Origin: a virus
IMG/VR virus record: IMGVR_UViG_3300046171_000284
Span: 6,908-70,907 of that record
DNA length: 64,000 bases
Direction: 5' to 3' (one strand)
Shown here: one piece after another, positions 9,031-38,300 of the stretch
Layout: every line of letters starts with the position of its first letter
How positions within the stretch are numbered: position 1 is the first letter of the stretch
Program-made: the position numbers and the translations under genes
Notes under the pieces: model-generated
Seen by the model: the letters and a program-made list of their open reading frames with translations, nothing else
Database searches by the model: none
Told to the model about the DNA's origin: nothing

Positions 9031-10972
9031 CTATTTTGTGTACATTTTTGAAATTTGATATTCCGCTCCTAACGGAAGTTTGTCGCCAATCCATTCAGGT
9101 GGCGTTGACATTATCTTTTTTATATCTTCCGCGCTATCCTTTGCATTTTCCTCATCAACGAGGACGATTGCTTCATCATGAACATGCATGACTACATCGT
9201 AACCTGCCTCATCTAATTTCAGCAAGCAGTTGCCAAAAACGGATCGCGCTTCTCTTTGAATTTGATTCTCAACAATCTTGGGACCATAGTACCAACTACG
9301 CTTGCGGTCACCCCTTCGAGTCTTGCAAGATCTGCCGTTAAGCTCAGGTCGGATGTTGAAATATTTTAGTTTTTCTCCGTTAAGTAATGGTAATTCAAGG
9401 ACATCCTCAGCAGTCTTGTACCTACGCTCATAGTCTTTCCACAGTCGGCAAAGTTTGCCATTTGAAGCTCTAAAATTCGACACCTGAGTATACGCATTTA
9501 CCCAATGCCTTTTTGTGCAATCGTCCAAGTCTTTCCACATAGCCAACTTGTCTTTCGCGTAGTCAGATATGAATGTTCCGAACTTAAACTCCTGTGCCTT
9601 GCTCGGTTCCTTATCCAAAATATCAAGCCTACCAAAATCGCGAACGGTTTCATAAAACCTAAACCATCCCGCACCATAGCCCAACGCAAGGACACGAACT
9701 TTCGCGAGTAAATACATGTCGGGATCTTCTTCCTTCAGGGGCGTACCCTCGTCCTCCCAACCCATTGTCGCAATCGCATGTGCCTCATACGGATTGTAAC
9801 CTTCCTTAAGCAGTTCAATCGTTTTAAAATCGCCAATGACTAAAAGCAAAAGCCGTGGTTCAATAGCACTAAGATCGCATATCACAAACACCTTACCTTT
9901 CGGAGCCTCAAGCATGTGCCGTAAATAAACTCCGTACTTCTCACCCCGTGGCATATTTTGTACATTAAAACCCGTGTCACCACTAAATCTAAGTGTCGAG
10001 TCAGCACCGCAATTACTTCATTGCCATAGCTGAGTCGAGTAATGCCGTCCTCCTCGTAACAACGAGCGATCATAGATTCTAATCGACTGATCTGAACATT
10101 GATTTTGCTGTAGTCAGCACATGCTTGGACGAAATCATGATCTTTGCCATACTTGGCAACCCATTCAGTAAAAGCCTCACTGCCTTGGGCTAGCGAGCCG
10201 GGCATCGGAACACCCGCTTTTTTACACTCGTCCGCCAAGCCTCGACGAGAAGTTGGCTTAAAATTCTGACGATACTTCGGATCGAACCGGTTTGTCCATT
10301 CAAGTTTCTGTAAAAAACCCCACCTAGTTTTATCTAAATCGTTCTTGCTTTCCTCCATGAGCTCGCGGTTTGCGGGAACTCCTTTCCAACCCATCATACG
10401 GGTCAAATGAGAAAGTTTAGCCTCATGCTCAGGAAAGTAATCTTTCAATCGCTGAAACAATTTCCAACACCACTTAGCATCGTCCTTGCCGTAAGCTAAA
10501 AGGTCACCCGCTTTACCCTCGCGGATAGCGTCATCCCATGTCCGACCTTTCATCCAATCTCGCATACCCTTGTCCATGTCGTGATCAAAGATTGCTTTTA
10601 ATGCACCCGCCAAACTTCTTGAAAAGTAATTGTAGGTAGCCATGTCCGCCGTACAATAAGTATCCATACCTAAAGCCCACTTGGGAGCAGTGCCTAACTC
10701 AACTGATCGGTGCAGTAGAGACCAATCAAATGACATATTGTGAGCGACTAAGCCGGAGGCGAAGTCCTTAGACGGTTAATTATATCCCAATCAAAGTCTT
10801 TTGGAGAGCCACCAAACCACAGTTCTTTGCCGTTTGGAAGCAGACCATAAACGGTAAGCATATACATACTGTCCTCGTTAAGTGCCTGAGCATACTGCCT
10901 AGCACCCATAGTCTGTATTGTAAGCTGATTGTTATATTCTGATTCATAATCAATAGCGAAAATATATTGCAT
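9031..10972 (-). CDS. polA: family A DNA polymerase, split into three ORFs by two frameshifts
   Basis: Exo I AIDYES (10748-10972); AHNMSFD and YGKDD exonuclease motifs (9882-10736 frame); motif A DLSAIEPR, motif B KVRVLALGYG, motif C VHDE (9031-9954). Confidence 0.9.
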
Positions 10973-19843: not shown

Positions 19844-20240
19844 GGAACAGACGCTCGTAAACAAGTCGTACAGAGGGCTTGCGAGCACAAGAACTATCAT
19901 TCCTAGCGGAAGGGCTTAAACCTCAAATGAGGAGGAGTCAGTGAGACATTCACTTATAGTTGGTAATCAGAAAATATACAGTATTGCACCATAATGCCTT
20001 GAGCAAGACGATGGTCTGCACTGAGATGTAATCACAATGTCCATATGGATTCAGGATTATAATCTAAGTTCTTAGCGGAACACAGTGGGTACAACTGTAG
20101 GCATAAACAATTGAACTTTTAAAAGTTCTGTCGGTTGTTACAGGTAAGCTCAGAGATGAGTTGTCCTGTCAGAATCCCTAGAGGATCTGTCGCATAATAT
20201 CGGTTGTTTTCTGATTTGTGGTATACATTCCACCTGTTCC
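19844..20240 (+). ncRNA. putative large structured non-coding RNA
   Basis: No ORF of 60 aa or more; closing helix GGAACAG/CTGTTCC; inner helix AATCAGAAAA/TTTTCTGATT; about ten local hairpins. Strand inferred from flanking genes and G-U pairs. Confidence 0.6.
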
Positions 20241-20390
20241 AAACTTTCGGTTCATCTAAACCAAAAAACAGACTGATTCATACAAATACTCGTATGGGTA
20301 GGGTAGGCGATTCTGCCCATACGAGACACTTTCTATGCAAAATACAAATAACAAAAAACTATTTGTTCTAATTGTAAAAGAAATGGGTCG

Positions 20391-21056
20391 TTGGAAAACA
20401 CTAGGGATTTTCGACAACTTAAAATCTATAAAGTTAGAACAAAGCAACATCCAAAATATATGCGAAATAATACAAACTCGTACAGTCCAACAGCGACACC
20501 TCTCCAAATTCTTGGAGAACTCGATGGTTCCAACTTGGGATCACAACCTAAAAATAAGAAACCGGTTGTTCGGAGGTGCAGATTGGAAAAATCAAATGTA
20601 TTCTTCAAAGACCAAAGGTTCGGACTCCTAACAGGATTAACAGTAGCAAGTAAAATACTACAGCATCATCTAGTATTTACATCGTCAAAATTCGGCGGAA
20701 CTTGGAAAGAACCCGGTGAATCTACTATCACAATCAAAATCGGAAAATGGATTGATGAAGGTAAGCTTCCAACAATTGTAGCAAATACAGGCGTTGCAGA
20801 TGCCGGAGTACAAGTACAAAAAGGATCTAGATTAGTAAATCTAGACACCGTACGAACAATGTTATTAAATCTCGAAAATTGGGATTTAAAACTAAATGTA
20901 CCTAATTGGGAAAAACATAAAGTACAACGAGGCAAAAGAAAGCATAAAGCTAAAGAGCATAACGAAATATTAGTCTACAGTAACGATGTCGATGTTCTTA
21001 CAAAAGAACATTGGATTATTAGATTAATAAAATTCTTCTTGCCTTGGACAAAATAA
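20391..21056 (+). CDS. hypothetical protein
   Basis: 221-aa ORF; start uncertain because it overlaps ORF 20335-20631. Confidence 0.55.
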   Translation: MENTRDFRQLKIYKVRTKQHPKYMRNNTNSYSPTATPLQILGELDGSNLGSQPKNKKPVVRRCRLEKSNVFFKDQRFGLLTGLTVASKILQHHLVFTSSKFGGTWKEPGESTITIKIGKWIDEGKLPTIVANTGVADAGVQVQKGSRLVNLDTVRTMLLNLENWDLKLNVPNWEKHKVQRGKRKHKAKEHNEILVYSNDVDVLTKEHWIIRLIKFFLPWTK

Positions 21057-21058
21057 TC

Positions 21059-21139
21059 ATGGCTTGGGATATAATAATTATTCTTTTTCCAATGTTACTA
21101 ATGTTTTGGTTCGTATGGAAAATCGGACAAATCGAATAA
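21059..21139 (+). CDS. 26-aa membrane peptide
   Basis: MAWDIIIILFPMLLMFWFVWKIGQIE, starting 2 nt after the previous stop. Confidence 0.5.
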   Translation: MAWDIIIILFPMLLMFWFVWKIGQIE

Positions 21140-21212
21140 ATTTCTCGATAACCGTAACAATAACGCCTTATGTACAATATCTTGTACATGCTAGCTCTTG
21201 GAGAAATCTAAC

Positions 21213-21425
21213 ATGACTGTTACTTTTCAATCAGGTGTCGCACAAATCACTCGTGATTTCGACGCAGGTACTACCTTGGGTCAAGCTTTGGAAGTCGTCC
21301 GTCCCGCACTCAATGTTGGTACTGTTTCCGCAGTATCCAACGGAGTTGAGATCGGACAAGGCGACGCAATTGATGGTTTCAACCATATTCAATTGCACGC
21401 CCAAAGCCACTCTAAGGCTGTATAA
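21213..21425 (+). CDS. ubiquitin-like (beta-grasp) protein
   Basis: 70 aa, GGAG RBS upstream; pattern TVTF...GTTLGQAL...VSNGVEI...I.G...IQL...SKAV; lies upstream of E2, E1 and JAB genes. Confidence 0.7.
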   Translation: MTVTFQSGVAQITRDFDAGTTLGQALEVVRPALNVGTVSAVSNGVEIGQGDAIDGFNHIQLHAQSHSKAV

Positions 21426-21598
21426 GCGTTAAATAAGAACTATCATTAGTAGTTCAACTGACCTCAATAAGAGGAACCACACTGCTTACTAAATCATAAT
21501 ATACAAGCAATCGGGTCTAAGTACTTGAACCCGCGAAATCAATACCTGAACCATCCTACATTATAGACAATGTAGATCATGATCAGACAACCAAATTT

Positions 21599-21645
21599 GA
21601 GCTAGCTATGGAGACTAAACCCTCCGTAGCTAGCTCTTTTTTTTT
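21599..21645 (+). terminator. intrinsic terminator after the Ubl gene
   Basis: GAGCTAGCTATGGAG / CTCCGTAGCTAGCTC 15-bp stem plus T9. Confidence 0.85.
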
Positions 21646-21675
21646 CAACCTAAATCATAATAAAACAAATCAAAT

Positions 21676-22500
21676 ATGACATATCATAATAAAGAAAAAT
21701 ATATAATCCAAGGTGACAACATCATCTTGGAAACAACAACCAAACAAATCGTATTAAATACAAGACTACAAGATGTAGTATTCGATCCAACAAATCGATT
21801 CTCAATAGATTCATCACTAAAAATGAATCCAATTACATCGCTGTCACAAGACAATTCAATCAGATACTTCGACTCAAACGAAATTCTATACAAAGTATCC
21901 AACATTGGTCAAAAAATATCGTTCAATTCACACGGAACACTGGCAAGTAACAACAGATGGACCCCAAGCTTCAGTTCACAATCCACAGATCCTCTATGGA
22001 AATGGGTAATAAAATCACGCTTCTCAACAACACCGGGATCAAACACAGGAATACTCAGAACATCATTCATATTAATTGAAATGTACAAAAAAGATAGCGG
22101 ACAGATACATTTAATGAATGGTAAACTCCTGTATGCAGAAGTAGACGACAAAGATTCAACTATCATCCATACTTTCGCACCACCGTTTCCAAATGTATAC
22201 GAAAACGGTCTGATATGCCTTGGTAGTCTAATCGAAACCGATGATTCAAAATTAGATCTACAAAATCCTAAAGTAATGACAGCAAAAATAATGTCAGACG
22301 GATGGAATCAAGATCTATACAGACCACAATATAATTGGGTAGAAAAAGGTGAATTAACACAAGAATTCACCTTACCGACTAATTTAAAAGACTCCAAAAT
22401 AACTCATGGATTCTTAAGAACAACAGATAAAAACGATCTGACACTAGTCACCCCAATGTTACACACAAACATTCTAAATGTATTCGGAGATCAATACTAA
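21676..22500 (+). CDS. prokaryotic E2/UBC-like conjugating enzyme
   Basis: APPFPNVYENGLICLG matches the E2 (H/F)PN-x4-G-x-IC active-site motif; Cys codon at 22216. Confidence 0.7.
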   Translation: MTYHNKEKYIIQGDNIILETTTKQIVLNTRLQDVVFDPTNRFSIDSSLKMNPITSLSQDNSIRYFDSNEILYKVSNIGQKISFNSHGTLASNNRWTPSFSSQSTDPLWKWVIKSRFSTTPGSNTGILRTSFILIEMYKKDSGQIHLMNGKLLYAEVDDKDSTIIHTFAPPFPNVYENGLICLGSLIETDDSKLDLQNPKVMTAKIMSDGWNQDLYRPQYNWVEKGELTQEFTLPTNLKDSKITHGFLRTTDKNDLTLVTPMLHTNILNVFGDQY

Positions 22501-22814
22501 TGGACTTAGAAAGTAAAATAATAACTGAAATAGAAAAAGCAGAAGACGACAATAAACTACTGTTTTTCAGATCAGGAATAGGTCAACACTTCAAAAACAT
22601 CAACGCTTGTTATGCAGTGTTGCTAATCAGACTATCACAACATCATAACTCAGTAGCAAGAATGTTAGTAGAAACTAAATCTGTCGATCAACCAATACAC
22701 AAAGATGACCCACTTATTGTACTCATGAAAAGTATAGAAATAAAACTTGATGAAATAGAAACAGACTTAAAAAACGCACTAATATTCGCAAAAAAATTAA
22801 ATAAAGAAAACTAA
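22500..22814 (+). CDS. hypothetical helical protein in the Ubl cassette
   Basis: TAATG overlaps with both the E2 and E1 genes. Confidence 0.65.
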   Translation: MDLESKIITEIEKAEDDNKLLFFRSGIGQHFKNINACYAVLLIRLSQHHNSVARMLVETKSVDQPIHKDDPLIVLMKSIEIKLDEIETDLKNALIFAKKLNKEN

Positions 22815-23494
22815 TGAAAATTAATATCATCGGACTCGGAGGAGTCGGCTTAAAAATACTCAGAGAATTAGTAGAATCTAACTTCGCCATTACAAGCATG
22901 AAGCTTTGGGATGGAGATGTAATAGAAGCACGCAACTTAGAGCGTCAAATCTACAGAACTGACCATATTGGCATGTCAAAATCAGAAGCATCAAAAGACA
23001 TGTACTGCAAAGAAAATGTTGTTGGATTTCCATGCGAAACATTCGGCGACATAAATCTAATTACTCTTAGAGAAAATCAAAAAAATATCTGCAATGATGA
23101 TGTTACATTCATCGCTACAGATAACAATGAATCAAGAGTATTACTACTCAACAATTGGAAAATAATGTCAAAAAACCATGTGCTAATCAGTTCAGCGAAT
23201 GCTACAGCAGACGAAGGAATTGGCATTGGTTCAACCGCATGGATCTACATGAAAGAATGGTACAACGATCCAATCAAAGACCCGATCATTAGAAACAATT
23301 TAGAATCTAATAATCATGTCAATATCGGCAGACCATGCTCAGAAACAAGCGAACCGCAAACAGCATTAGCTAACAGCGGTGCGTCTATCCGTGCAGTCGA
23401 ACTACTATCACTATGGAAACATGCAAGCAGTACTTCAATTGCTGACCATCTACCAATTGAACACTCACTATTCTACAAACAAACAACTATCTAA
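22814..23494 (+). CDS. ThiF/E1-like adenylating enzyme
   Basis: IIGLGGVG, WDGDVIEARNLERQ, ATDNNESR, and candidate catalytic Cys in RPCSETSEPQTALAN. Confidence 0.85.
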   Translation: MKINIIGLGGVGLKILRELVESNFAITSMKLWDGDVIEARNLERQIYRTDHIGMSKSEASKDMYCKENVVGFPCETFGDINLITLRENQKNICNDDVTFIATDNNESRVLLLNNWKIMSKNHVLISSANATADEGIGIGSTAWIYMKEWYNDPIKDPIIRNNLESNNHVNIGRPCSETSEPQTALANSGASIRAVELLSLWKHASSTSIADHLPIEHSLFYKQTTI

Positions 23495-23495
23495 T

Positions 23496-24308
23496 ATGAC
23501 CAAAACTAATTATATAATACCTAATTGGTACTACATTATAAAATCAAATAAAACACTTAACAGAGTATTCGAAAACTCAATAGAAAATCCAAACTCAAGT
23601 GCAGTAAAAGCAATACTGTTCAATAACTTTTCAGTACCAATGTCTGAAAAATTTGAATGTATTACTGATATTTTCAAATCAGTAATGTTGCACTGCAAAC
23701 AAAGTGATAAAAATAAATCAAGTGCGTATCATCCTACACACTTCCACCAAACTAATAATCATCCTTACTTTTGGAGAAATACCAACACAAAAACTATCAA
23801 AAATGGAACAATTAATACAAATGGAGACGGATTAACAGTAACACAAAGAATGTGGAGCCTGCCTGACATACAACTCGATGACTTCACTGCAAGAAGAACA
23901 GAATTATGGAGTGCATATAAAACAATAGAAGAATATGCAGGTAACGATGAAGGATGCGTATCAACAGAAGCAATGATTCGTTGTTTAGTAGATTTAGAAA
24001 GAAATGACGGAGAAATGACAGACAGCAATGTAGATAATCTTTTAGATCAGCTAACAGCAGAATGTGCTGATCATTGTGACTATGAAGAAACAGACTACGA
24101 TTACGAAGATAGAGATCATGAAGATACAACAGATTCATCTTGGTCATCATACAACAACGGAACTCTATCAAATATATTACATCGACTGAACACACTGTCA
24201 CCTGAACAAAAAGCTACAGTAGAAGAATACATCCGATATCTAAACAATGAAGAAACTCACATAACACTAGATTACATCATTCAAAAATTAACTCCAATAT
24301 CTCTATGA
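23496..24308 (+). CDS. hypothetical protein with acidic tract, in the Ubl cassette
   Basis: ATG at 23496 just after the E1 stop; DYEETDYDYEDRDHEDTTD. Confidence 0.65.
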   Translation: MTKTNYIIPNWYYIIKSNKTLNRVFENSIENPNSSAVKAILFNNFSVPMSEKFECITDIFKSVMLHCKQSDKNKSSAYHPTHFHQTNNHPYFWRNTNTKTIKNGTINTNGDGLTVTQRMWSLPDIQLDDFTARRTELWSAYKTIEEYAGNDEGCVSTEAMIRCLVDLERNDGEMTDSNVDNLLDQLTAECADHCDYEETDYDYEDRDHEDTTDSSWSSYNNGTLSNILHRLNTLSPEQKATVEEYIRYLNNEETHITLDYIIQKLTPISL

Positions 24309-25423
24309 AAACAATCATACATAAAAATAAAGTATTCCAAGAAGTAGAAACTGATTTCTACTCATCATGGAAAGAAACAATAGTGCCTGAAAAAGCACCA
24401 CGACTCAGTTGGAAAAAAGCAAAAATAACTCTAGATCAATGGAACGACATCAAGAACATTTGCGAATACACCAATAACAAACACAGCTCAGAATGCTTAA
24501 TCAGATTATACTTCAACTGCCAAAAAGACGAATGGGCAATGCTCATGCATCCTCAAGAAATGAATGGCATGACTGTTGATGATGACCTAGACACCGACTT
24601 AATACTATCATTAGGTGAAGGTTGGGCAGAAGCAGGTAGTGTACACCATCACTGTAGCTCAGGTGCATTTCAATCATCAACAGATGAATCAGATGAAATG
24701 CAAGCATCAGGACTACACATTACTATTGGTAAAATTGGATCTGATGAATACGAAATAGATGCACGATTCAGAGAAGGTGAATCATTCACAACTCCCAATC
24801 TATCTACATTCTTCGAAGTACCTAATTGGTTAGTCAATGATGTGCCGGATAAATTCCAATATGAAATATTCGAATACTTACTGTGCTCAAAAGGTAATAG
24901 TGATTTAGCAAAAGGTGATTGGATTGCACAATGCAAAGAAAAACCAAAATTAAATACAGTACACTCATACTCTCAAAGAGCAAGATACAGTGCATACGGT
25001 AAAAGCTCTTATCAAGTTACGCCCTACACTAACCACACAATACATAAAATACCTGACGCTGATCAAAAAGAACTATCATTAAATGATGCGACAGAATTAG
25101 ATGATTATGAACACGCACAAATGATTAAAGATGCTTGGAATGAACAAGAAAAAAAGATGTTCAATGTTATTGAAGATGTAGCATTACAGTATGATCTCGG
25201 TACTTGCGATGTACTCAGCATAATCGACGATCCTCTAAAAGAAATGGACGGTATATTAGTCAAAGCGTGGCAAGACATAAGAATGTTGGTAAAAGATACA
25301 CCAATGAATCTAACTGAAATAAGAAAGTTCATATCTAATGATCAAGACGATGTAGAACTAGTGCTTACAGTTGCACATGAATACAGTCCATATAACTACG
25401 GAACAACATATCCAATTGTCTAA
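24305..25423 (+). CDS. JAB/MPN+ metallo-isopeptidase
   Basis: SECL (Glu) followed by GSVHHHCSSGAFQSSTD = HxH-x7-S-x2-D, then GLHITIG. Confidence 0.85.
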   Translation: MKTIIHKNKVFQEVETDFYSSWKETIVPEKAPRLSWKKAKITLDQWNDIKNICEYTNNKHSSECLIRLYFNCQKDEWAMLMHPQEMNGMTVDDDLDTDLILSLGEGWAEAGSVHHHCSSGAFQSSTDESDEMQASGLHITIGKIGSDEYEIDARFREGESFTTPNLSTFFEVPNWLVNDVPDKFQYEIFEYLLCSKGNSDLAKGDWIAQCKEKPKLNTVHSYSQRARYSAYGKSSYQVTPYTNHTIHKIPDADQKELSLNDATELDDYEHAQMIKDAWNEQEKKMFNVIEDVALQYDLGTCDVLSIIDDPLKEMDGILVKAWQDIRMLVKDTPMNLTEIRKFISNDQDDVELVLTVAHEYSPYNYGTTYPIV

Positions 25424-25564
25424 TCAACTAAACAAAAACGAGAAACAAACACTCCGTACTGCGTTACGCAGACACGAAACGGAAACAATGCGAAAGACCA
25501 AGCCAAAAAGCTTGGTCTTTCGTATTCTTAACAACATTAAAGAAATAAAATTCAAACTTAAATT

Positions 25565-25867
25565 ATGAAATATAAAATATATTATACAGCACATATGTGT
25601 GATCATGTATATGTCGAAGCAGAATCTAGAGATGACGCACGAGACTTAGGACATGACATGGCAAACTCAGAACATCCTGAATCAGCTCATATAGACATTG
25701 ATGATGTAATATCAGAAGATGATGAAGCAACCAACTCAACCCACAACTATCATGACTCAGCTACTGTAGACTACGATGGTGATGTTCTCGATGAAGATCT
25801 AGATGCTGATGATGTATTTGAAGCACAGCATTCAAAATCACCAACTATAGAATATGAAAAAATATAA
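25565..25867 (+). CDS. small acidic protein (DpnD/PcfM-like pattern)
   Basis: MKYKI...VEAESRDDARDL. Confidence 0.6.
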   Translation: MKYKIYYTAHMCDHVYVEAESRDDARDLGHDMANSEHPESAHIDIDDVISEDDEATNSTHNYHDSATVDYDGDVLDEDLDADDVFEAQHSKSPTIEYEKI

Positions 25868-26030
25868 AGTAACATTCTTAGCAATAACTGAGCGTAACTA
25901 CGAAGTTGATGCAGAAAACTTTGAAGAAGCAAAAGAATTTGCATCTACTGATTTAGAAAATGATATCGAAGTAAGTAATGCGTGGAAATCAGACGCAAGA
26001 ATAGTAGATGTCGAAGAGCAAAATAACTAA
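25854..26030 (+). CDS. small acidic protein, paralogue of the preceding gene
   Basis: Translated by hand: MKKYKVTF...EVDAENFEEAKEFA..., 58 aa. Confidence 0.6.
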   Translation: MKKYKVTFLAITERNYEVDAENFEEAKEFASTDLENDIEVSNAWKSDARIVDVEEQNN

Positions 26031-26032
26031 AC

Positions 26033-26072
26033 AAAATAGGTACAGATGTTAACAGCATTTGTACCTATTTTT
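26033..26072 (+). terminator. intrinsic terminator, possibly bidirectional
   Basis: AAAATAGGTACAGATGTT...AGCATTTGTACCTATTTTT. Confidence 0.75.
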
Positions 26073-26218
26073 GTGCTACGACATCACTCATTCGCGTTGG
26101 GCTACTATCATCCCTATTGCCCACAAACTTGTCGCCATCTCTCACTCAACACACCTCGGTCGGTCGGGTGTGAGCCAATAGTTTTATTTAACCCCCTTCT
26201 CTTTTACTTGGTATTTGT

Positions 26219-26842
26219 ATGAATACATTAGTACAATATATCGATCTGATTAAGGCTGTTTTACATGCCTTAGTTCAGTCACCACTAGTTAGCGAAGATG
26301 ACAGCAAATACGGATCAGACCGATTCCATACAGCTGAATACTCTGCATACGGCAAGGACGAAGAGGGTAACACCGTGATCAAACATGTCGTTCGCGCTCA
26401 GATCAACGGGGTTAAAGCAAGATTCTATTGCAATACTTCGGATCGTTGGGAAGCTTGCGTCAAGGCTCTTGCCCGAAGAACGGTTACGATCAGTAATCCA
26501 ACACTATCATTAACAACACCTGCGTATGGTGATCAGGCTCAAATGTCCGAATTTATCGGTGCTTTCAATGCCGTAATAAATACGCATGGTAAGGGTTTTC
26601 GTGCGTCTCTCAGGGATGAGGATGATACGGATTGGCTTGATTTTCCTGAAGCTCAGGACATGATGCTTGATGAGAATGTTCAAACAAGTACCACTGATTA
26701 CTTGGGAATGATCGCAAATCCGAATGCTCAGGCACAGCCCCAAACGCAAACTGCTCCGACTCCGAATGTTGCACCTCAAGCAATACCTCAGCCGGTTCCT
26801 GTTCAGCCTGCCCATGACGCAGTGCCGAATGTCTTCGCTTAA
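26219..26842 (+). CDS. hypothetical protein with Q/P-rich tail
   Basis: 207-aa monocistronic ORF with its own terminator. Confidence 0.7.
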   Translation: MNTLVQYIDLIKAVLHALVQSPLVSEDDSKYGSDRFHTAEYSAYGKDEEGNTVIKHVVRAQINGVKARFYCNTSDRWEACVKALARRTVTISNPTLSLTTPAYGDQAQMSEFIGAFNAVINTHGKGFRASLRDEDDTDWLDFPEAQDMMLDENVQTSTTDYLGMIANPNAQAQPQTQTAPTPNVAPQAIPQPVPVQPAHDAVPNVFA

Positions 26843-26853
26843 TTATTAACAAT

Positions 26854-26893
26854 AAATAGTCCGTGATCCGTATGGTGATCGGACTATTTTTTT
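26854..26893 (+). terminator. intrinsic terminator
   Basis: AAATAGTCCG...CGGACTATTTTTTT. Confidence 0.75.
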
Positions 26894-27240
26894 GCCCCGA
26901 CATCACGAATCGAACCCGTTCGCCAACCTGTTTGGGGAAAGGGGAACGCACGCGTGCGCGAGACAATAGATTTTATGTCTAGTGCAGTTGCGTACCAATA
27001 CGCTGTACACCAACGACTTATGGATTACCTTATGAAATTGGGTCACTATTGGCTCACACCCGACCGACCGAGGTGAGTTGTATCGAGGAAATATGGGAAT
27101 ATCTAGCGATACCCCCATATCCCCCCGATACCGTGAGAGATGGCGACGAGTTTGTGGGCGATAATGAGAAAATAAACAGTCCCCTGCCCCCACCACCGGG
27201 GGTAACCAAAAACAATAAACCGTCGTACTAGGTATCCTTT

Positions 27241-28421: not shown

Positions 28422-30176
28422 GTGTCAGACGCTGAACAGCTTCAAGACCTAATCAGGGTAGACCCTGAGCTTTGGTTTACGACCTTTGCCGTAATCAAGG
28501 ATAAACGGGGCAAGACAATTAGCCCAAAAGCCAACACCTTACAAAAAAGGATGTTTGCACATTACCGAAAATGCCAAATCGAACAAAAACCGTGCAAGAT
28601 GATAATATTAAAGCCTCGTCAAAAGGGAGCAAGCACTTGCGCCCAAGCACTGACATACCACCACATGAGGAAGCACCCCGACCTAGCGGGGTCGCTGATG
28701 GGGGACATATCGGGGACGAGCGACAAAGTATTCGAGATTTATCGGAGATACGCAGAGAACGACAGCTTTCCTTGGGACGATACAGGAACAAACCACGAAA
28801 ATGGGGGAAACCTCGTAGATCAGATTACCCTAACAAGCAAAAGTGTGTATGGAAAAGAGACCGCCGGATCAAAAAACGCGGGTCGAAGTGGGACAGTTCA
28901 AGTTGGTAATATGACTGAGGTTGCGTTTTGGACAATGCAAGGTGAAAGAGACCCTGCACTTGGCTATTTGCAATCTTTATACGATGGGGACAATGTATCA
29001 TTAGTTGTAGCCGACTCCACTCCAAATGGTCCCGTTGGATGGTTTTACCGCACATGGGTACAGGATAACGAATGGGCTAAGATATTTGCCTCATGGTGGG
29101 AGTTTGAGGATTCCGAGATACCTTTTGTTTCTGATGAACAGCTTCAGGATTTTAAGGATACTTTAACTGCCGATGAGATATCCGAGATGGAAAGATTTGA
29201 TGTCACATGGGAGCAGATGCATTGGAGAAGACGCACTCTTCAGGACAAATGCAATGGTGATGTAGCTAAGTTTAGACAGGAATACCCGTCAGATCCCGAA
29301 GAATGTTTCCTTATGTCATCCCGCCCACGCTTTCATGTGGAAAATATTAAAGCCATGCTCGATTCCTCGAAGAAGCAGACTCCTCAAATCGGTGTCATGA
29401 CATTTCAAGACGAGTCAAGAAAGGTCGCTAGTTTCCTACCCGACCGTGGCGGTCTGTGGAAAGTTTACGAAGAACCTGAATATGACTCAAAATACTTGAT
29501 TTCTGTGGATACATGCACAGGTGAAGATCAACAGACTCAGGGATTAGCCTCTGATCCTGATTGGCACAGTGCACAGGTATGGAAAGCACCCTATGAAGAT
29601 TGGCATGGCAATTGGCATGTTGCCAAATTAGTTGCCGTACACCATAGCCGATTGGATATTGGTGTGTTAGCTGAGGAAGTTGCATCCGCATCTGCGTGGT
29701 ATGGCAAAGCATTTACCGTCCCCGAAGTCAATAATTCGGGATTAGCCTTAGTTAAGTACCTATTGGACTTGGGCGTACCTGTATATCGTAGGAGAAAAAC
29801 GATTGATTCTATGGGAATTGTGGAAAAGAGCTTCGGTTGGACGACTGACAAATTGACCCGAAAAACGATAATAGACCATTTAGCTTCGGAAATTATCGAA
29901 TTTAATGTGGATATCCCTGATGAAGGCATCATGCAAGAGTTGAAAACCTTTGTCATAAATGAGAAGGGTAAGCCTGAAGGTGCTCCCGGTCATCATGACG
30001 ATCATGTATTGGCATGTGCCATTGCAGTTTACAATATTGACAGTGCATCTTCGTACAAGATGCCAAAAAAGAAACGGATTACTAATCGTATGCTTCGAAA
30101 GAACCCAAGTTTGATGTGTCCTGATGGATTTATGCGTGTCCCATTAAAGGAGTACATGCGTAATAAGCGTAGGTAG
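28422..30176 (+). CDS. terL: terminase large subunit
   Basis: ILKPRQKGAST, STPNG, FRQEYP, ISVD, PEVNNSG, HDDHVLACAIA. Confidence 0.9.
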   Translation: MSDAEQLQDLIRVDPELWFTTFAVIKDKRGKTISPKANTLQKRMFAHYRKCQIEQKPCKMIILKPRQKGASTCAQALTYHHMRKHPDLAGSLMGDISGTSDKVFEIYRRYAENDSFPWDDTGTNHENGGNLVDQITLTSKSVYGKETAGSKNAGRSGTVQVGNMTEVAFWTMQGERDPALGYLQSLYDGDNVSLVVADSTPNGPVGWFYRTWVQDNEWAKIFASWWEFEDSEIPFVSDEQLQDFKDTLTADEISEMERFDVTWEQMHWRRRTLQDKCNGDVAKFRQEYPSDPEECFLMSSRPRFHVENIKAMLDSSKKQTPQIGVMTFQDESRKVASFLPDRGGLWKVYEEPEYDSKYLISVDTCTGEDQQTQGLASDPDWHSAQVWKAPYEDWHGNWHVAKLVAVHHSRLDIGVLAEEVASASAWYGKAFTVPEVNNSGLALVKYLLDLGVPVYRRRKTIDSMGIVEKSFGWTTDKLTRKTIIDHLASEIIEFNVDIPDEGIMQELKTFVINEKGKPEGAPGHHDDHVLACAIAVYNIDSASSYKMPKKKRITNRMLRKNPSLMCPDGFMRVPLKEYMRNKRR

Positions 30177-30232
30177 TTAGTCCAAATGCAATCGGTTGAG
30201 GGCGTTATACCCGATTGTATATTCTTTCCCTT

Positions 30233-32305
30233 ATGGGACTACTGATGACAGGGACATTGTGGGGTTTAGGCTTATGGGGTGCTAAAACTCTTTACGATCA
30301 AATATTTGGAGAAGGTTCTTCTGAAGGGCTGAGTGAGGAAGAACTTCAGGAGGGTCTCGATAATAGCCCCTTGGATAAGGACGCTTTTTTACAAAGTGAT
30401 GAGGGTCAAGCTCTGATGCAACAATCTATGGCAATGGGTCAGGCTCAGGCTCAGGCTCAGCAACAGGGCAATCAATTTCAGAGAGATCCCAACACCCCAA
30501 TGGGTCGGTCTAATCAGCTTTATGCCGAAGCATCTCAAATGGCAGACACCGTAAAAAGCGGTACTCGAACATTGCCAAATCGCGAGAAACAGCTTCGCAA
30601 AGCTATGGCACATACTGAGACTCTTCAGGCTTTAAAAGATAGCCAAATGAGGACTCGTGATTTCGATAAAGCTAAAAGCCGATGGGATCACCTCGGAATG
30701 GATCGTAGCTTTAATCAGCTATCCGAACAGGAGAAGCAAAAATTTTCTGATGGTGTAAAGCATGGTAGTATGAAATGGAATCGTGCTGATTGGGAAAACC
30801 CACAGCCGACCACCACATCTAACAGTACCACGCCTACGGCTACTAATCCGGGCAAGACTAATCCCGCACCCGCCACCCCTGAGGGCGGACCCTCTACTTT
30901 TGATAAGATTGCGGAGGGCATTAAGGATGGTTTTGACAAAGGCATTAAAAAAATACTTCCCGAAGAAAAAGAGGGTGAAGGCACTGTATTAAAGCCCGAA
31001 GAAACGCCCACTAGCCCTAGAGTTCCTGACGGAAACGGCGGTTACTCTCAAGCAGATCCCTTGCTACCCCAACCTAAAGCACCTGCACCCACTAGCCCTA
31101 GAGTTCCTGACGGAAAAGGGGGCTACTCTCAAGCAGACCCATTACTTCCCAAGCCTAAAGCACCCCCTCCTTCTTCAGGAGGTATTCCTACCGTACCTAT
31201 TTACACTCAACCCCCTAAGACCGACAGACCGTCCAATGCCGAAACAATTGGTAATGTCGTTGGACCTATTTACGACAGAGTAATTAGAGATGGTATCAAC
31301 GGTATAACTAATAGCGATATAGCCCCCTCAGCTAGAGAAATTAGCGAAATACCGGGAAACATTAAAAGTGCATACAGCGGAGTCAGCCCTGAACAGCATA
31401 AGGCGATCATGGAGAAATACTCTAAGCCCAAAACCGCCACAGGCACAATGGGAGGAGCATTTGATGCGGGAGGAGGTTTTGGACCCGAAACTGTTACCCT
31501 CCCTCCAACAGATCCTTTTGGACAGCCTTTAGATTCCAACGCAACTCCCGTTAGTCCTAGCGAACTCCCATCCCTTGACCCTAGTGCTCCTCCCAACGCT
31601 CAACCGCCAAATCAGGTTGAAACACCGATGGATTCGCAATACAACATACCCGGTCCCACTTTGCCACTAGCACCGGGTCAGAGAGAGTTTTTAGAAGGCG
31701 AGATTGCTAAGGGTCCTCAAGTATCTCCCCCTCCGAGGGAGATACCCCGCTTCGACTCTCAGGATGTCACAAAAGTAACTGAGGAAATTTTACCGTCCCA
31801 TACGGAAAAACCTGCACAAGGCATAGTATCTAAACCGATTGAGCCGGGCAAGCGTCCTCATCGTGGCAGATTCAAAAACCGCCCACTTGACGGACCCCCA
31901 CAGGGTGCATTTCATAAAGCACCCGGTCGCCCTGAAGGCGTAGTATTTAACGATCCCAAAGCAAGAAAAGCCGAGCAAGAAAGAGTTTACAGAGATACAA
32001 TGGCAAAAGTACCTATTGTTTCCACTGTTAACGGCAGACCTCAGATTACAGGTTACAAAACAAAAGAGCTTATGCGTCAAGGTATGGGCGGTAAGAGTGT
32101 AAAATGGGATGTCGACTCTGAAAAATATGCAGGTGCTGAAGACCCGTTCGGTGGTCCTTCAGGCTATGCAAAATTTGATGGAACAATACCAAAAATGGAT
32201 AATGGTCAAGTTGAAGTCCCTAAAAACACTAATGTAGCTACAGTTTCTGATTTTGACGACCCTCTTAAGAAAAAGCGTAAGAAGAGAATTGGTCAAATAG
32301 CCTAA
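30233..32305 (+). CDS. Pro-rich, likely disordered internal virion/ejection protein
   Basis: Hydrophobic N-terminus and low complexity; precedes the giant protein. ATG 30233 preferred because of the upstream promoter-like motif. Confidence 0.55.
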   Translation: MGLLMTGTLWGLGLWGAKTLYDQIFGEGSSEGLSEEELQEGLDNSPLDKDAFLQSDEGQALMQQSMAMGQAQAQAQQQGNQFQRDPNTPMGRSNQLYAEASQMADTVKSGTRTLPNREKQLRKAMAHTETLQALKDSQMRTRDFDKAKSRWDHLGMDRSFNQLSEQEKQKFSDGVKHGSMKWNRADWENPQPTTTSNSTTPTATNPGKTNPAPATPEGGPSTFDKIAEGIKDGFDKGIKKILPEEKEGEGTVLKPEETPTSPRVPDGNGGYSQADPLLPQPKAPAPTSPRVPDGKGGYSQADPLLPKPKAPPPSSGGIPTVPIYTQPPKTDRPSNAETIGNVVGPIYDRVIRDGINGITNSDIAPSAREISEIPGNIKSAYSGVSPEQHKAIMEKYSKPKTATGTMGGAFDAGGGFGPETVTLPPTDPFGQPLDSNATPVSPSELPSLDPSAPPNAQPPNQVETPMDSQYNIPGPTLPLAPGQREFLEGEIAKGPQVSPPPREIPRFDSQDVTKVTEEILPSHTEKPAQGIVSKPIEPGKRPHRGRFKNRPLDGPPQGAFHKAPGRPEGVVFNDPKARKAEQERVYRDTMAKVPIVSTVNGRPQITGYKTKELMRQGMGGKSVKWDVDSEKYAGAEDPFGGPSGYAKFDGTIPKMDNGQVEVPKNTNVATVSDFDDPLKKKRKKRIGQIA
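31007..31164 (+). repeat. 81-bp-period in-frame duplication
   Basis: PTSPRVPDG(N/K)GGYSQADPLLP(Q/K)PKAP occurs twice. Confidence 0.9.
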
Positions 32306-32311
32306 ATCTCC

Positions 32312-35300
32312 ATGTCACTTTTCGAAGAAGAGGTGTTCCGTGATCCCTTAGCCAAGGGCGATGATAAAGTTTTCGATCTTGGTTTTGATCTTGGCGACCC
32401 TCCTAAAAACACTTACGGCATAGGACAGCCTCAACAGCCCCAAATAGGTGAATATGAACCTACATACGATCCTGTAGAAGGACCACAGCCTGACCCTGCC
32501 AACGAGCCCGTTTATCGGGACTATTTAGCTTTTAAGGATAATTTAGGCAGAGTTGGTTCCGAGCTTACTGATTTTAATTACCGTAGTTCGTCCTCCAACA
32601 AAAGGTATGATTCTTTCTTTGATGAGAAACTACCCTCGATTTACTCTGACCTTACGGGCTATGAAATGCCTGATAATGTCAGTAAAGCAAATCGTAAGAC
32701 CTTATTAGAAGACCTAGAAAATCAGTATTCTGATGCCGAAAGAAAAGTCTTAAAAGGTAATGAGAATTTCCTTGGATTAGGTGAAGATGAAGCATTCGAA
32801 CAGGCTAAAGCATTTGCCACACCTGAGCGTAAAAAGCTCATTGGCAGTTTAAGAAAAGAGCATGACAGACTAGAGCTTGAACGCGACGAATATGCTCGGA
32901 GAGCATATGAGAAAAGAATGGAAAGAGACCGTATGCTTGAGCAAAGGTCGCAGGTTCCACATATTATCCGTGCTGAAGCAGAGGAATGGGCTAAGCGTGA
33001 GCGTAGTTTACTAGCATCAGGTACTAAAAAGAACAAACTTTCATATGAGCAGATCCAACAAAAGCTAGATGCCCGATACCGTTCGGTTGATCCGTTTGGC
33101 GGTATGCTTGACAAGTCTGAACTTAGTTCCTCTGAGCGTGTTGAAGCTAGAAAAGCGTTAGAACTACTATCATGGTCTAAGAAAGAGACTGATTCCTTTA
33201 GAGGTCAGGGCGGGATTGTTTCCAATAATGGATTCGTGAACGGTTATCCTGTTGGTTTAACGGGTGCTGAGAGGGAGGCTTTGGAGGTTGCCGACCTTAG
33301 AAAAGCAGGGATTACCACTTACAAAGGCAAACCGATTGAGGAAGCCTTGGAAGCCCTTGGCGGTCAGGAAAAAGTTGAGGCTTTAACAGCTATTTCTAGT
33401 ACCCTGAAGCTACACACTGCATACACAAACGCAGGTGTTGAGTTATGGAGTAAATGGAATCAGGAAGGACACGAAGAAAGACAGGCTGAGTATGATATGG
33501 CACAATCCGCAGTCCAACGGGCGTTGGGTAACGCGGGTGCGATGGGTCTTACAAATGACATAGTTAGACGAAACCCTTCTGCTTGGTGGTTTGACCACAT
33601 GTTAAATGCATCTAAGCGTGGATGGGATCGCACTGACGGCACTCCCCGAAACATTGCTCGTATCATAGCAGGTGACGGAGGTATTGACCGATCCGCATTA
33701 TCTAAAGTTGTAGAAGCATCTCAGCTTGAAAGACAGAGTCCACGATCTAAGGACTACGATAATTACATGAACGCCCTTCACAACAAGGGTGGTTCCAAAG
33801 GTTTTTACGATGCTTTCTTAACATTGACTGACGATAAGCAATGGAAGGGCAGTGCGATGACCGTGCTGACCGAAATGATGGTCGAATCTCTTGCCTCATT
33901 AATTCCATTAGTTGCGAACAACATTAAGGATGCAGGTATCCCTGTTCTTGGTGCGTCTCTTCTTGAATCATTTTTAACCAAAAAACCAAATAAAACGCTT
34001 TTAAAAATACTCGGCAGAAATGCCGGACTCGCGATAAAGGGTTCGTATGGTGTCGCATCTTTTCAATTAGGATACATTGGTAAGCTCTTGGAGGACATGA
34101 GCGAATTGGGAGTTGATATAAACAACCCCGATCACATGTTATCTGCATGGAATAACCCCGAAATTAATGAGAGACTGCGTAGACGGGCTCGAAATTATGC
34201 GGGTGGCTTAGCGTTCTTTGAAATGTTGGGTGTGGGCTTAATGGGTCGTGCTAGTAAACTGCTCAATGGTCCCACGAAGTTCTTAGGCAAGACAAGTCTT
34301 GGTAAGTATGCACTTGCCCCTGCTATCAAATCCACTGCCGAACTAGGCTTGGACATGGGTACAGGTATGGCATCTGAATATGCAGGTTTTGTCCTATCAA
34401 AAGACCCCGGTGAAAAGACTCCATACGATGACATTCTCATAGAAGGCGCGGCTGAATTAGGACCCGGTATTGTATCCACAGGCATAAACTTCGCCACTCC
34501 TCAGCTTGGGGATATGTGGAAGTCTAGCACCCCTAGAAAACCACAGGATATTGTTGATGATGGCACAGGCAATGAGACTCAGGTTCTAACCGACCCCGTT
34601 TCTGACCCTAATCGTTCAGGTATCGTCACATCTACACAGACCTACAAAGGCATGGAGTTTGAAGCTACAAGCTATTCCAATCTTGAAGCTTTCGATGATA
34701 ATTTCGTAACTGACATAAAAAACGCCACAGGTGTCGAGCTTGATGCCAACGACTCTCTTGCGGTTAAAGCTTTTGTAGCCAATGGAATATTTCGCCCTGA
34801 CTCAGCTATTTCTCCTGACAAAGTCGATTTTTTCTTTGGCAGTCTGCCCGATCAAGCCCCCGGTCGCTACATTAATGAGGGTAACGGTCGTGTTCTAATC
34901 GCAATCGACCCTGTACGAGCAAAAGAGCTTGGATTTACAGTAGCAGAAACATTTATACATGAGGGCGGTCACTTCGCTGAGGATTTCATTCTTGGAGAGG
35001 GCGAGGTTCAGGGTTTTTGGGATGAACTTACTGACGAGCAAAAGAAAAGAAATGCATTAGAATATGCCACGCTTGCTCGCCCTGATGGACCTGCTACCGA
35101 TGTCACTCAGTTAAATGAAAACGAAAAAGCAGTTTATGAGTATTTACTAGATAACGAAAAGAAAAACCGATCCGAATGGTTGACTCTTCAAATTGCCCGT
35201 GTTCTTCGTGGCGATGTTGACAAAGAAGGTTTTCCTCCCGGTCTTTGGTCAGGTATTCAAAAAATAATCATGTTCTTCCGCTCATCTATCGAAAAGATGT

Positions 35301-38300
35301 TCGGATCTGAAGACCTTGCCCCTAATAGCAAAGAAGCAAAGGCTGAAATGGATCAGTACCTTTATGAGGTATTGATGGAAGGTAAAAAAGCTAGAAGTGG
35401 TACAGAAGCAGTAGCATCCCCTCAGCCAACAGCAACAGCCCCTGAGCCAACCATTATTTCGGACGGATTTGATGTCGATTCGGAGACAGGCGATTTAACA
35501 CCTGTTGACCCTACTAAACCCAATGAATCCGCTCGACAGCAAGGCATTAATATTACTAGGGAAGGTGACGAAGCAAAATTCTTACTCTCCCCTAGACAAC
35601 AAGATGCGATCAAAGTTCGTATTAAAAGAGGGGAAGACCCTGAGAAAATAATAAAATGGGCGGTTAAAAATACTAAAAAGCCCGAAGGCGTGGTCAGATC
35701 CTATGTCGAATCGGTACTAAAAGAAGGCGGTATCCAAAAACCAAAAGGACCTGCCGTTGCCGAAAAACCGAAAAAAGCGTCTGACCCTAAGCCTGAGAGC
35801 GAGCCCGTACAATCTGAGCCCAAACCCAAAGCGGAACCCCAAGCTGAGACTGAGCCCCAAGCTGAGCCCCAAGCGGAGACACCCAAATTCAAACCGCTCG
35901 GAGATGCTGAGAAAAGAGCAATAGCTAAGAATGTAAGGGAGGGCATGAAAAAAGGTCTTTCCCCCAAGAGTATTACTGACGATCTATTAAAAAAGGACAC
36001 TAAAAATCAATACGACCCGAAAGAAGTCCGTGCCTATGTAATCAGAGTTGTAGATTACGATAAGAAAAAAGCATCAGAAACTCCCATCGCCCCTGACCCT
36101 CCGAAAGAAACTTTTAAACCGTTTACAGAAGAAACTAAAAAGAAACTAGCCCCTAGAATTAGGGATGGTATTAAAAAAGGTTTTTCCGCTAGTCAGATTG
36201 CCGATGTTTTTATTAAGCAGAATAAGGGCAAATATGACCCGAAGGAAATTAAGGCTTATATTCAAAGGGTCATAGATTACGACAAGAACAAATCCGAGCC
36301 TAAGACCGAGCCCAAGCCCAAGCCCAAGCCCAAGCCCAAGCCCAAGGACGAAATTCCTGAAATCGCACCTGATGACCCTGAGTTTATAAGACTATTTAAG
36401 CTTGAAGAGAAGGCTATCGAAGAGGCACGAGCAAATTATGATTTGTGGCAAGACGGAAAAATAACCGATGAGGAGATGGATGCGTCTCAGGCTAGAGCGA
36501 AAGAAGCAGAGAAAGCTACTTACGACTATATAATGTCGAAGAAAAATAAGCCTAAAGACGAAGGCGTAGATTTAGGTAAAGCCACAGTTAAGTTTACAAA
36601 AGCCGAGCTTCAGGAATTGGTTGATGGCGGTATGACTGTAGCCGAAGCCAAGAAAACACTTATAGCAAAGTATGCAAAAGACGCAAAGGTAACAAAGACC
36701 GAGCCTAAGCCTAAGATTGACATACAGAAATTTTACGATCTTTACGATCAGGCATTCGTCAATGCCAATGCTCCTAGTTTCAGTAACGAGGGTAAGCTTT
36801 CAAAATCACAGGTCATTCAAAAAGTTCTCATGGATAATATTGAGAACATACCTGCGGAAGACTTTGCTTATGTCGAGCAAGCTTTAATCAAGCGTTCCCA
36901 ACAAGGTCAGCAAGAATTTGATCTATCTGCACCCGGTACTATCATACCTACTTTAGGAGATAAAAAAGCTCAGCAAGTAAGAGGTTCAGTTCGTGGCGTA
37001 CTAAACTTTTTAGAAGAGTTTAATGTATCCGTAGAAGAGGCAGACAATTTCTTAGTGGATCTATCCGCCAAGAAACTAGTAGTTAATTTCGATCCTAAAA
37101 ATGTAGATAAGTTATCTGACGCATTAGCACAGTCCGTAGCTACATTAATCTCAGGCACTGATCTGTACAGACAGTTTTCCTACGATGTTGTCGGCAGGGA
37201 TGCCAAAAAGTCGAAAGCATTTTACGAAGAACAAACAAAAAGGTTTCAAAATTTTTACAAAGAAAACTTTTCTGACACTCCCTACAACGAGTGGATAACC
37301 ACTAAAGACGCTAGAACCACATGGTATAATTTCGGTAGGCAAGTCTACAAAGACATGATTGTCGGCGTTTTAGGCGGTAACATATTGGAGAAAATATCCA
37401 AGGATATTCAGTTACCAAAATCTTATATTCAAAAAATTAAGGATTTTGTAAAAGGTTTATTTTCCAAACTTTCAGGCGTAAATACTGAGGAACTTTCCAA
37501 GTACTTAAGGGGTGTCACAAAAGATGCTTTTTTGGGAAATACTAGTCCTTACACAATCAAAGGTTCTCAGATCCGTAAGGACATATCTTACGATAATATT
37601 TACAATACTGACTACGCCTTAAATGCGTTCAAACACGCGGGTGATGTAGTTAAGAAACTCACAAAGGATAGCAGATTTGCACTGACAGGTAGTTTAGCAC
37701 TTGCCTCAAAAGGGCTCGTTTACCGACCTAAAGGCGAACCTGTCCACGACTTAGACTACGCATTTGATGGGTCGCAAGAAGAGTTAGTTAAGGCAATGGA
37801 GAAACTCTTACCCAATGCACTTCCCCGCCGTGCTTTTAAATCTAGTTCAGGAGTACTGAACGCACCTTACATCATCCCCGAAGAAGGATTCAGAGTTGAG
37901 GAAGTTTCGAATGGAAAGCTCAAATGGTACGACCTTAAGACAGGTAAAGAGGTTAAAAGCGGGGCTTATGTGACCTCCGATTTTTTCATTGGAGCGGTTA
38001 CAGACGAGGAGACTTTTAACTATAATTGGAAAACTAGAAACGGTAGTTTAGTGCCAATTAAGTTTACTAGACCGGGAGTAATTTTCGATGCCAAACTTGG
38101 TTACTCCCGAAAGAAAGACATTTTTGATTATCAGCAGTACACCGAGGATAGGGATAAATTATTAAGTGCTAAAGACAGAGAAAACAAAGTCGGCAATCTT
38201 TTAAAAAGGTCTACCTTTTCCGACCTATCTGCCCCCGGCGGAACGCCCATACGAGAAGAATTCGGGGTAGGCGGTTTAGCTAACATAAGAGGGTCTGACT

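Follow-up and report, generated by a model that had tools for sequence, protein, structure and literature searches.

The DNA described here is a stretch of 64,000 nucleotides ('the window'), positions 6,908 to 70,907 of the IMG/VR virus record IMGVR_UViG_3300046171_000284 (70,907 bases in all; CheckV completeness 100%), and the feature of interest is a cassette of six genes on its + strand. Four of the genes encode a ubiquitin-like modifier (Ubl), an E2-like protein, an E1-like adenylating enzyme and a JAB/JAMM metallopeptidase; the other two encode proteins referred to as p104 and p270. The cassette is best read, at a probability of roughly 0.55, as a self-contained phage cascade for conjugating and deconjugating the Ubl in the service of the phage's own cycle. 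The four named parts are very probably what they are called. What is new is a minimal set of Ubl, E2, E1 and JAB that resembles PRTRC (the ParB-related, ThiF-related cassette), has a modifier ending in Lys-Ala, and is fixed in a clade of uncultivated phages. The six co-oriented open reading frames (ORFs) lie where an initial annotation, made from the letters of the sequence, had placed them, and every motif that it quoted is present in the translations. That observation is confirmed. The accompanying interpretation, a complete write/erase system carried by the phage in its accessory region, is partly supported, and the initial annotation missed both the non-glycine Lys-Ala C-terminus and a terminator past the Ubl gene.

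The first gene (21213..21425, +) encodes the Ubl, a protein of 70 amino acids, and has an ATG start with GGAG 9 nucleotides upstream. Modelled with AlphaFold2 from an alignment of 42 rows (the window protein and 41 relatives), it adopts a ubiquitin fold in the order beta-beta-alpha-beta-beta-beta, with a predicted local distance difference test score (pLDDT) of 90.4. The tail is looser, scoring 68 for the last block. In a Foldseek comparison of the model with the PDB, ubiquitin and ubiquitin variants rank first (TM score 0.70–0.81, probability 1.00). The modelled 70-residue protein has the beta-grasp fold of ubiquitin-like modifiers, in agreement with the initial assignment. Single relatives match ThiS (E 3e-6), TUG-UBL1 and other beta-grasp families.

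The C-terminus of the window Ubl reads HSKAV, in which K68 is the sole lysine of the protein and V70 lies past the usual end of the family. Across the family the end is S-S-K-A or N-S-K-A-V, with K68 invariant and A69 at least 90% conserved (Gly in a few members); in 21 of the 42 family members, including that of the window, the tail lysine is the only lysine of the domain. Among the C-termini of 69 Ubl matches, 46 stop exactly at [ST]K[AG] and 8 carry one further residue, as does the window protein with its Val, while 7 have 2–30 extra residues and 8 spell the motif differently. Tandem di-Ubl genes with two beta-grasp repeats per ORF are present in two relatives (L003:3685-4155 and L005:4920-5408), the first repeat ending S-K-A in L003 and EKAS in L005. 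A modifier precursor that a peptidase cuts would be expected to show this pattern: conservation as far as Lys-Ala and no further, along with tails and tandem copies. Long Ubl fusions were also searched for and none was found, a result that carries little weight.

The E1-like enzyme (226 residues; 22814..23494, +) contains the sequences GLGGVG, NLERQ, DNNESR and PCS, and consists of a single ThiF-type domain scoring 48.3 bits against Pfam ThiF (PF00899), above the gathering cut-off (GA) of 28.1. The residues G7, G9, G10, D33, D35, N41, R44, Q45, K56, D103, N104, R108, N129, P174, C175, Q182 and N187 are invariant; these include the nucleotide loop, both ribose aspartates, the arginine of NLxRQ, K56 and the Mg aspartate D103. 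No substitution of the adenylation residues or of C175 occurs in sets of 65 and 40 sequences, and P174-C175 is likewise constant in all 65 E1 relatives. By its score and its intact ATP/Mg site the protein can be placed in the ThiF superfamily, as first annotated, and the conserved Cys after the adenylation core is of the conjugating type, where a thioester is predicted to form. When the E1 profile is compared with PDB sequences, UBA3, SAE2 and UBA6 lead, followed by MccB, UBA5, ThiF, BubCD and Cap2. A predicted complex of the E1 with the Ubl, run without controls, scored 0.20 where the mark is 0.32, and speaks neither for nor against binding. A search for related loci with the E1 alone returned 7 pattern matches, none of them a relative.

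The last gene (24305..25423, +) encodes the metallopeptidase, of 372 residues. Its translation contains HHHCSSGAFQSSTD, which reads HxH-x7-S-x2-D, and all 28 sequences compared share E63, H114, H116, S124 and D127, which make up the JAMM zinc site. The JAB motif given by the initial annotation is borne out by this site. The catalytic domain spans approximately residues 40–160, and the C-terminal half is variable. The window protein matches PRTRC_A weakly, at 14.5 bits and within the motif, and gives no match to Pfam JAB or Prok-JAB; the latter is weakly matched by 5 of the 28 relatives (best E 0.0027). Comparison of the JAB family profile with PDB sequences yielded chance coiled-coil matches only, at E values of at least 1.5.

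The E2-like protein (274 residues; 21676..22500, +) contains FPNVYENGLICL. Its site can be written P-N173-x7-C181-x-G183 ... N211-x-D213-L, and N173, C181, G183 and D213 are invariant in all 47 sequences of the family; C181 is the only cysteine of the window protein. An extra, beta-rich N-terminal part covers approximately residues 1–100. The model is of moderate quality (pLDDT 76.4, with residues 218–244 below 50) and has four strands (107–167) before the site and helices after it. Four strands before the active site and helices after it are the topology of the UBC core, and the N-to-C spacing of 8 is also that of the canonical HPN...C. A conserved Asn and a catalytic-type Cys following a four-strand meander, as expected of Prok-E2_D and UBC proteins, are present here as N173 and C181. 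Prok-E2_D is matched by 8 of the 47 family members (best E 1.2e-6) and PRTRC_B, weakly, by 5 of the 47, and a relative that is 39% identical to the window protein (P0034) has a precomputed PF14460 match. These matches support the view that the protein carries a conserved Cys site of the Prok-E2_D/PRTRC_B type.

The JAB family profile found 94 relatives in viral contigs, 80 of which were examined, and 23 in genome contigs. The latter (L082–L104) are all contigs of metagenome-assembled genomes, many labelled Verrucomicrobia or Limisphaerales; the labels may hint at the hosts of a sub-clade, or may reflect phage contigs binned into such genomes. Gene order in the relatives is fixed: a Ubl of ~74 residues, an E2-like protein of 230–380, a gene of ~110, an E1 of ~238, in some cases extra genes, and then JAB. 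Against profiles of these positional sets the window proteins give E values of 1.5e-10 (Ubl), 3.8e-10 (E2-like), 2.2e-41 (E1) and 4.3e-64 (JAB). Among viral loci that extend at least 4.5 kb upstream of JAB, all 41 carry the four genes, a count that is partly circular as the profiles were built from these loci; of the independent genome-contig loci that reach far enough upstream, 7 of 8 do. A survey of synteny in viral databases had been proposed with the initial annotation. Every one of the 48 loci with all four genes, viral and genome-contig together, has them in identical order on one strand. This order in 48 of 48 loci and the ThiF score above the cut-off place the cassette beyond chance.

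In the main clade, a gene for a family-A DNA polymerase follows soon after JAB. A gene of ~608 residues downstream of JAB in the relatives had been considered as a terminase, and this was rejected, the gene being the family-A DNA polymerase. Among contigs whose DNA polymerase is at least 69% identical to that of the main-clade locus L015, JAB is present in all 27 with at least 3 kb upstream, and all four genes are present in all 16 with at least 5.5 kb upstream; many of these contigs also belong to the JAB set. Since it is fixed beside the DNA polymerase, the cassette in the main clade appears to be a constant part of the early or replication region and not sporadic cargo. The initial annotation had assigned it to an accessory region, with which its low G+C content agrees but its fixed place next to the DNA polymerase in the main clade does not. 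Only one relative (L049) shares the terminase of the window phage, and it carries the cassette too. Comparison of positions 20000–27000 by blastn, and of the window JAB and E1 by tblastn, with 50,697 phage records gave no match, and the JAB of L015 gave one weak match, to an unannotated 'Bacteriophage sp.' record. The cassette family seems to be lacking from cultured-phage records at the sensitivity used. No description of the phage cassette family was found in the literature searched, which took in few subscription journals and no supplements.

The nearest known system appears to be PRTRC (NCBIfam TIGR03735-03742), at the level of active-site motifs only. The reference used was that of Burkholderia phage BgVeeders33 (L105), as labelled by NCBIfam; a 2026 paper notes PRTRC in a B. 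gladioli prophage (PMC13366799). Both PRTRC and the window cassette have a separate Ubl (protein C), an E2-like protein (B, Prok-E2_D), a JAB (A) and an E1 of the ThiF family. The sites of PRTRC_B and the window E2-like protein align over P-x-x-N-V-x3-G-x-I-C-x-G with an N-to-C spacing of 8 in both, PRTRC_A and the window JAB have the extended motif H-x-H-x4-A-F-x-S-x2-D-x2-D in common, and the E1 family profile matches the PRTRC ThiF over nearly its full length (E 8e-19). Scores against the PRTRC families of NCBIfam are far lower than their cut-offs (A, 14.5 versus 101.8 bits; ThiF, 18.7 versus 144.75), B and C are unmatched, and the hhalign probabilities are 30% for E2, 9% for JAB and 0.1% for the Ubl. 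The gene orders also differ, being E-C-x(61 residues)-F-B-A-ThiF in BgVeeders33 and Ubl-E2-x-E1-x-JAB in the window. No ParB, PRTRC_E or PRTRC_F was found in the 70.9-kb record, although the PRTRC_F search was weak and positive in no control genome. Because of the low hhalign values, the scores below cut-off and the lack of these three proteins in the record, the cassette is regarded not as a member of PRTRC but as a distant, phage-specific relative. A search of 401 genomes from a single class gave no PRTRC_B.

In BgVeeders33 the PRTRC_C domain covers only residues 3–67 of a 129-residue protein (L105:26515-26904). Its beta-grasp ends T-K-G-G and is followed by an extension of 60 residues, which recalls the S-K-A end of the window Ubl; the former ends Gly-Gly, whereas the window modifier ends in Ala. 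The position of T-K-G-G before the extension suggests that the PRTRC modifier may also need C-terminal processing.

Other known systems resemble the cassette in part. According to PMC11601596, Bil (BilABCD) likewise has Ubl, E2, JAB and E1 as separate conjugating genes, but the architecture of its E1 is not matched by the window E1, with its 226 residues and one ThiF domain. Bil is also a bacterial antiphage defence, whereas the window cassette is carried by a phage. PADLOC (2023 library, in which the presence of Bil models was unchecked) gave no match for the Ubl, the E2-like protein or JAB. Type II CBASS has E1/E2 chemistry and a JAB eraser (Cap3); the window E1 weakly matches E1-E2 models of PADLOC (best E 2.4e-7), and the E1 profile matches the Cap2 chain 7tsx. 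In 10.1101/2022.03.31.486616, Cap2 is described as an E2-E1 fusion whose substrate is the CD-NTase itself. In contrast, the E2-like protein and E1 of the window are separate, there is a dedicated Ubl, and no SMODS CD-NTase was found in the 70.9-kb record.

In Bub (6E/DUF6527), a JAB-type peptidase cuts the Ubl precursor and the E1 activates the exposed C-terminus (PMC11601596); the E1 profile matches BubCD chains. According to the same paper, Bub has an E1-peptidase fusion in which the E1 is devoid of a catalytic Cys, and its Ubl ends in Gly. The window E1 and JAB, by contrast, are products of separate genes, the E1 has the invariant C175, and Lys-Ala forms the end of the Ubl. Finally, TAPI/TAPK of phage lambda pairs a phage beta-grasp protein with an adjacent JAB peptidase thought to process it (PMC1779556). 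Neither an E1 nor an E2 accompanies this pair, which is located among tail genes, whereas the window cassette has both enzymes and lies in a replication/early region.

Several observations weigh against a conjugation cascade. The 274-residue protein is the weakest link among the four named parts. Its score against Pfam Prok-E2_D (PF14460) is 22.5 bits, below the gathering cut-off of 25. Foldseek found no match to its model in the PDB at E values of 0.001 or less; in BFVD there was no E2 and just uncharacterised phage proteins among the matches listed; and the family profile matched no solved E2. Since no E2 emerged from the structure searches or the profile matches, the protein is labelled 'E2-like' and not as a proven UBC fold, which structure comparison did not confirm for the model. 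The E2 identity given by the initial annotation holds for the Cys site, and the UBC fold was not seen in the PDB, BFVD or the profile search against solved E2s. This bears on another possible explanation, in which the E1 would only adenylate and the 274-residue protein would be no thioester carrier, the product being a stable adenylate, amide or other adduct, as with MccB or PaaA, or a ligation free of E2. The E1 profile does match MccB and PaaA well in the PDB (55 and 45 bits), and Bub, as presented in PMC11601596, is a bacterial relative that departs from the canonical relay. But both candidate catalytic cysteines (C175 of the E1 and C181 of the E2-like protein) are invariant, the active-site motif is shared with PRTRC_B and Prok-E2_D, and the substrate is a folded ubiquitin-like domain and not a short peptide. 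This explanation is considered very improbable.

Also to be set against the cascade is the end of the Ubl. The family lacks the Gly (usually Gly-Gly) tail by which such modifiers are recognized, and has Lys-Ala in its place. As characterised Ubls expose a C-terminal glycine, according to PMC1779556 and PMC11601596, the Ala end is a real departure. In addition, the best NCBIfam names for the E1 are those of ThiF sulfur-carrier enzymes and MoeB. Such names, along with the one Ubl relative that matches Pfam ThiS, would fit a sulfur-carrier pathway, in which the E1 would adenylate the Ubl and the resulting thiocarboxylate would supply sulfur for a cofactor, for a thionucleoside or for modification of DNA or RNA, while JAB would only mature the carrier; sets of JAB, E1 and ThiS/MoaD-like proteins are known in sulfur assimilation (PMC1779556). 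Yet all of the ThiF and MoeB matches fall far below their cut-offs, the carrier ends in Lys-Ala and not Gly-Gly, and there is always an E2-like protein whose Cys is invariant. The initial annotation noted no sulfur-transfer genes nearby, and this extends to the whole 70.9-kb record, in which neither rhodanese nor Aminotran_5 (cysteine desulfurase) was found, the controls being positive in 13 of 14 and 14 of 14 genomes. The lack of rhodanese, cysteine desulfurase and CD-NTase in the record argues against both the sulfur-carrier and the CBASS readings, and a sulfur carrier is considered quite improbable.

The remaining points against a cascade serving the phage's own cycle concern its targets and its census. 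No E3 and no target were identified for the cassette, the function of PRTRC is described as unstudied in PMC13366799, and the census was conditioned on JAB or on close relatives of the DNA polymerase. The same chemistry could instead belong to a phage-carried module of exclusion, defence or maintenance, which would tag competing phages, as with Bil, or would act in the manner of an addiction system. For mobile clusters of E1, E2 and JAB, Iyer et al. put forward a role in addiction or protection (PMC1779556). A temperate Burkholderia phage carries a true PRTRC, the present record includes an integrase-like gene, and the G+C content of the cassette is the lowest in the window. Unlike patchy cargo, however, the main-clade cassette is fixed and collinear beside the DNA polymerase in the 27 and 16 contigs counted above, with one order in 48 of 48 loci; PADLOC gave just the weak E1 matches to CBASS E1-E2 models, and the record is without ParB, PRTRC_E and PRTRC_F. 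An exclusion or defence module is thought unlikely, and a cascade for the phage's own cycle is preferred.

The cassette genes are closely packed except at the Ubl. The E2-like gene and p104 (22500..22814, +) overlap by 1 nucleotide at 22500, as do p104 and the E1 gene at 22814; a 1-nucleotide spacer at 23495 separates E1 from p270 (23496..24308, +), and p270 and JAB overlap by 4 nucleotides (24305–24308). Because these coordinates overlap or abut, the last five genes appear to be translationally coupled, as the initial annotation had claimed. The Ubl gene is separated from the enzyme genes by a 250-nucleotide spacer that contains an intrinsic-terminator-like hairpin with nine T (21599..21645, +), found by consensus scan and RNA folding. 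The hairpin itself (21599–21636) has a 15-bp stem followed by the nine T and folds at -28 kcal/mol (z-score -8.3), and 0 of 200 shuffles fold as well. A second strong hairpin, with a weak U tract, lies 64 nucleotides past the JAB stop codon (25487..25526, +; -26.6 kcal/mol, z-score -8.2, again with 0 of 200 shuffles folding as well); the enzyme operon may end here. The region 20001–26000, which coincides with the cassette, has the lowest G+C content in the window (0.34–0.37 versus 0.39–0.48 elsewhere) and a strongly positive AT skew.

The p104 protein (104 residues), encoded between the E2-like and E1 genes, matches no Pfam, NCBIfam, PHROGs or PADLOC family, and nothing usable was obtained from the ESM Atlas. 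In all but one of the 69 loci in which phmmer found an E1, a short gene of ~110 residues separates E1 from E2, but comparison of p104 with the profile of this gene gave an E value of 0.29, at which a relation is undetectable. The main-clade version (e.g. L015:6957-7295) contains a highly conserved basic motif, D-C-G-R-K-R-G-A-I-L-R-Y-I-K, and has no family match; the motif is absent from p104. The p270 protein (270 residues, isoelectric point 4.81) starts at an internal ATG of the ORF 23379–24308. It too is without a Pfam, NCBIfam, PHROGs or PADLOC family, and its Atlas model is poor (pLDDT 0.41). Compared with the profile of the acidic gene that relatives carry in this place, it scores weakly (15.5 bits; E 2e-5, 32 sequences searched), which composition may explain. 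One to three extra genes, mostly acidic, lie between E1 and JAB in just 23 of the 69 loci. The acidic family of this interval has 21 members with isoelectric points of 4.05–5.54, 19 of them below 5, and tandem duplicates in L063, L067 and L069. These three loci also have an extra gene of ~82–85 residues between E1 and JAB, which is common to L081.

The phage origin assumed by the initial annotation is consistent with the source and completeness of the record and with its genes for terminase, portal, major head protein, DNA polymerase, helicase, exonuclease and integrase. The cassette lies between a minus-strand replication block (DNA polymerase, exonuclease, helicase, dNMP kinase and the integrase-like gene) and a plus-strand packaging and head block (terminase large subunit at 28422–30176, portal, major head protein). 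The integrase-like ORF (5095–6126, -) resembles tyrosine integrases (phrog_1, E 4e-8) and suggests that the phage may be temperate. The family-A DNA polymerase (9031–10736, -) is encoded as two overlapping ORFs (9882–10736 and 9031–9954), the one matching a part of phrog_17 and the other the part next to it, as might result from a split gene, a frameshift or an error in sequencing. A single ORF of 5551 residues (32312–48967, +) lies between a gene of 696 residues that follows the terminase (30215–32305) and the portal gene (48964–50982). Its middle third contains a weak UvrD/Rep-like stretch (E 0.003), and no match was found for the other two thirds among PDB sequences. A scan of the window found no tRNA and no Rfam family.

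The route of conjugation that we infer from these parts would begin with the Ubl transcribed from its own unit, ending at the terminator; as the terminator follows the Ubl gene, the modifier would be made in excess over the enzymes. JAB would then trim the residues past Lys-Ala, which in the window phage amount to one Val and in relatives to a longer tail or a second Ubl copy. A homodimer-type E1 would adenylate the exposed C-terminal Ala with ATP and Mg, and the Ubl would move onto Cys175 as a thioester. From there it would be transferred to Cys181 of the E2-like protein, with Asn173 acting as in UBC enzymes, and ligated onto lysines of target proteins, from which JAB could remove it again. 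The clade-wide position of the cassette beside replication genes suggests that it serves the infection programme and is not occasional cargo, and that programme may involve host takeover, counter-defence or control of the phage's own proteins. A stronger version, put forward only tentatively, is that a virus-specific modifier ending in Lys-Ala, a minimal E1, an E2 of the PRTRC type and JAB form an obligatory pathway of infection across the clade, by which host or phage proteins are tagged.

To our knowledge, the instances of Ubl conjugation demonstrated in bacteria to date belong to host defence (Bil, type II CBASS). If the stronger version is true, the cassette would be the first self-contained write/erase ubiquitin-like system that prokaryotic viruses turn on their hosts or use inside them, mirroring the host-side Bil and CBASS. 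A compact four-protein set fixed in a clade would mean that viruses, too, wield ubiquitin-like tagging in this conflict. With their small size (70, 226, 274 and 372 residues), the proteins are tractable for biochemistry and structure determination; they would test an E1-E2 relay that uses a C-terminal alanine beside an invariant lysine, and they offer a handle on what PRTRC-type modules do. That this gene set is fixed in many uncultivated phages suggests that these viruses tag proteins much as eukaryotic cells do.

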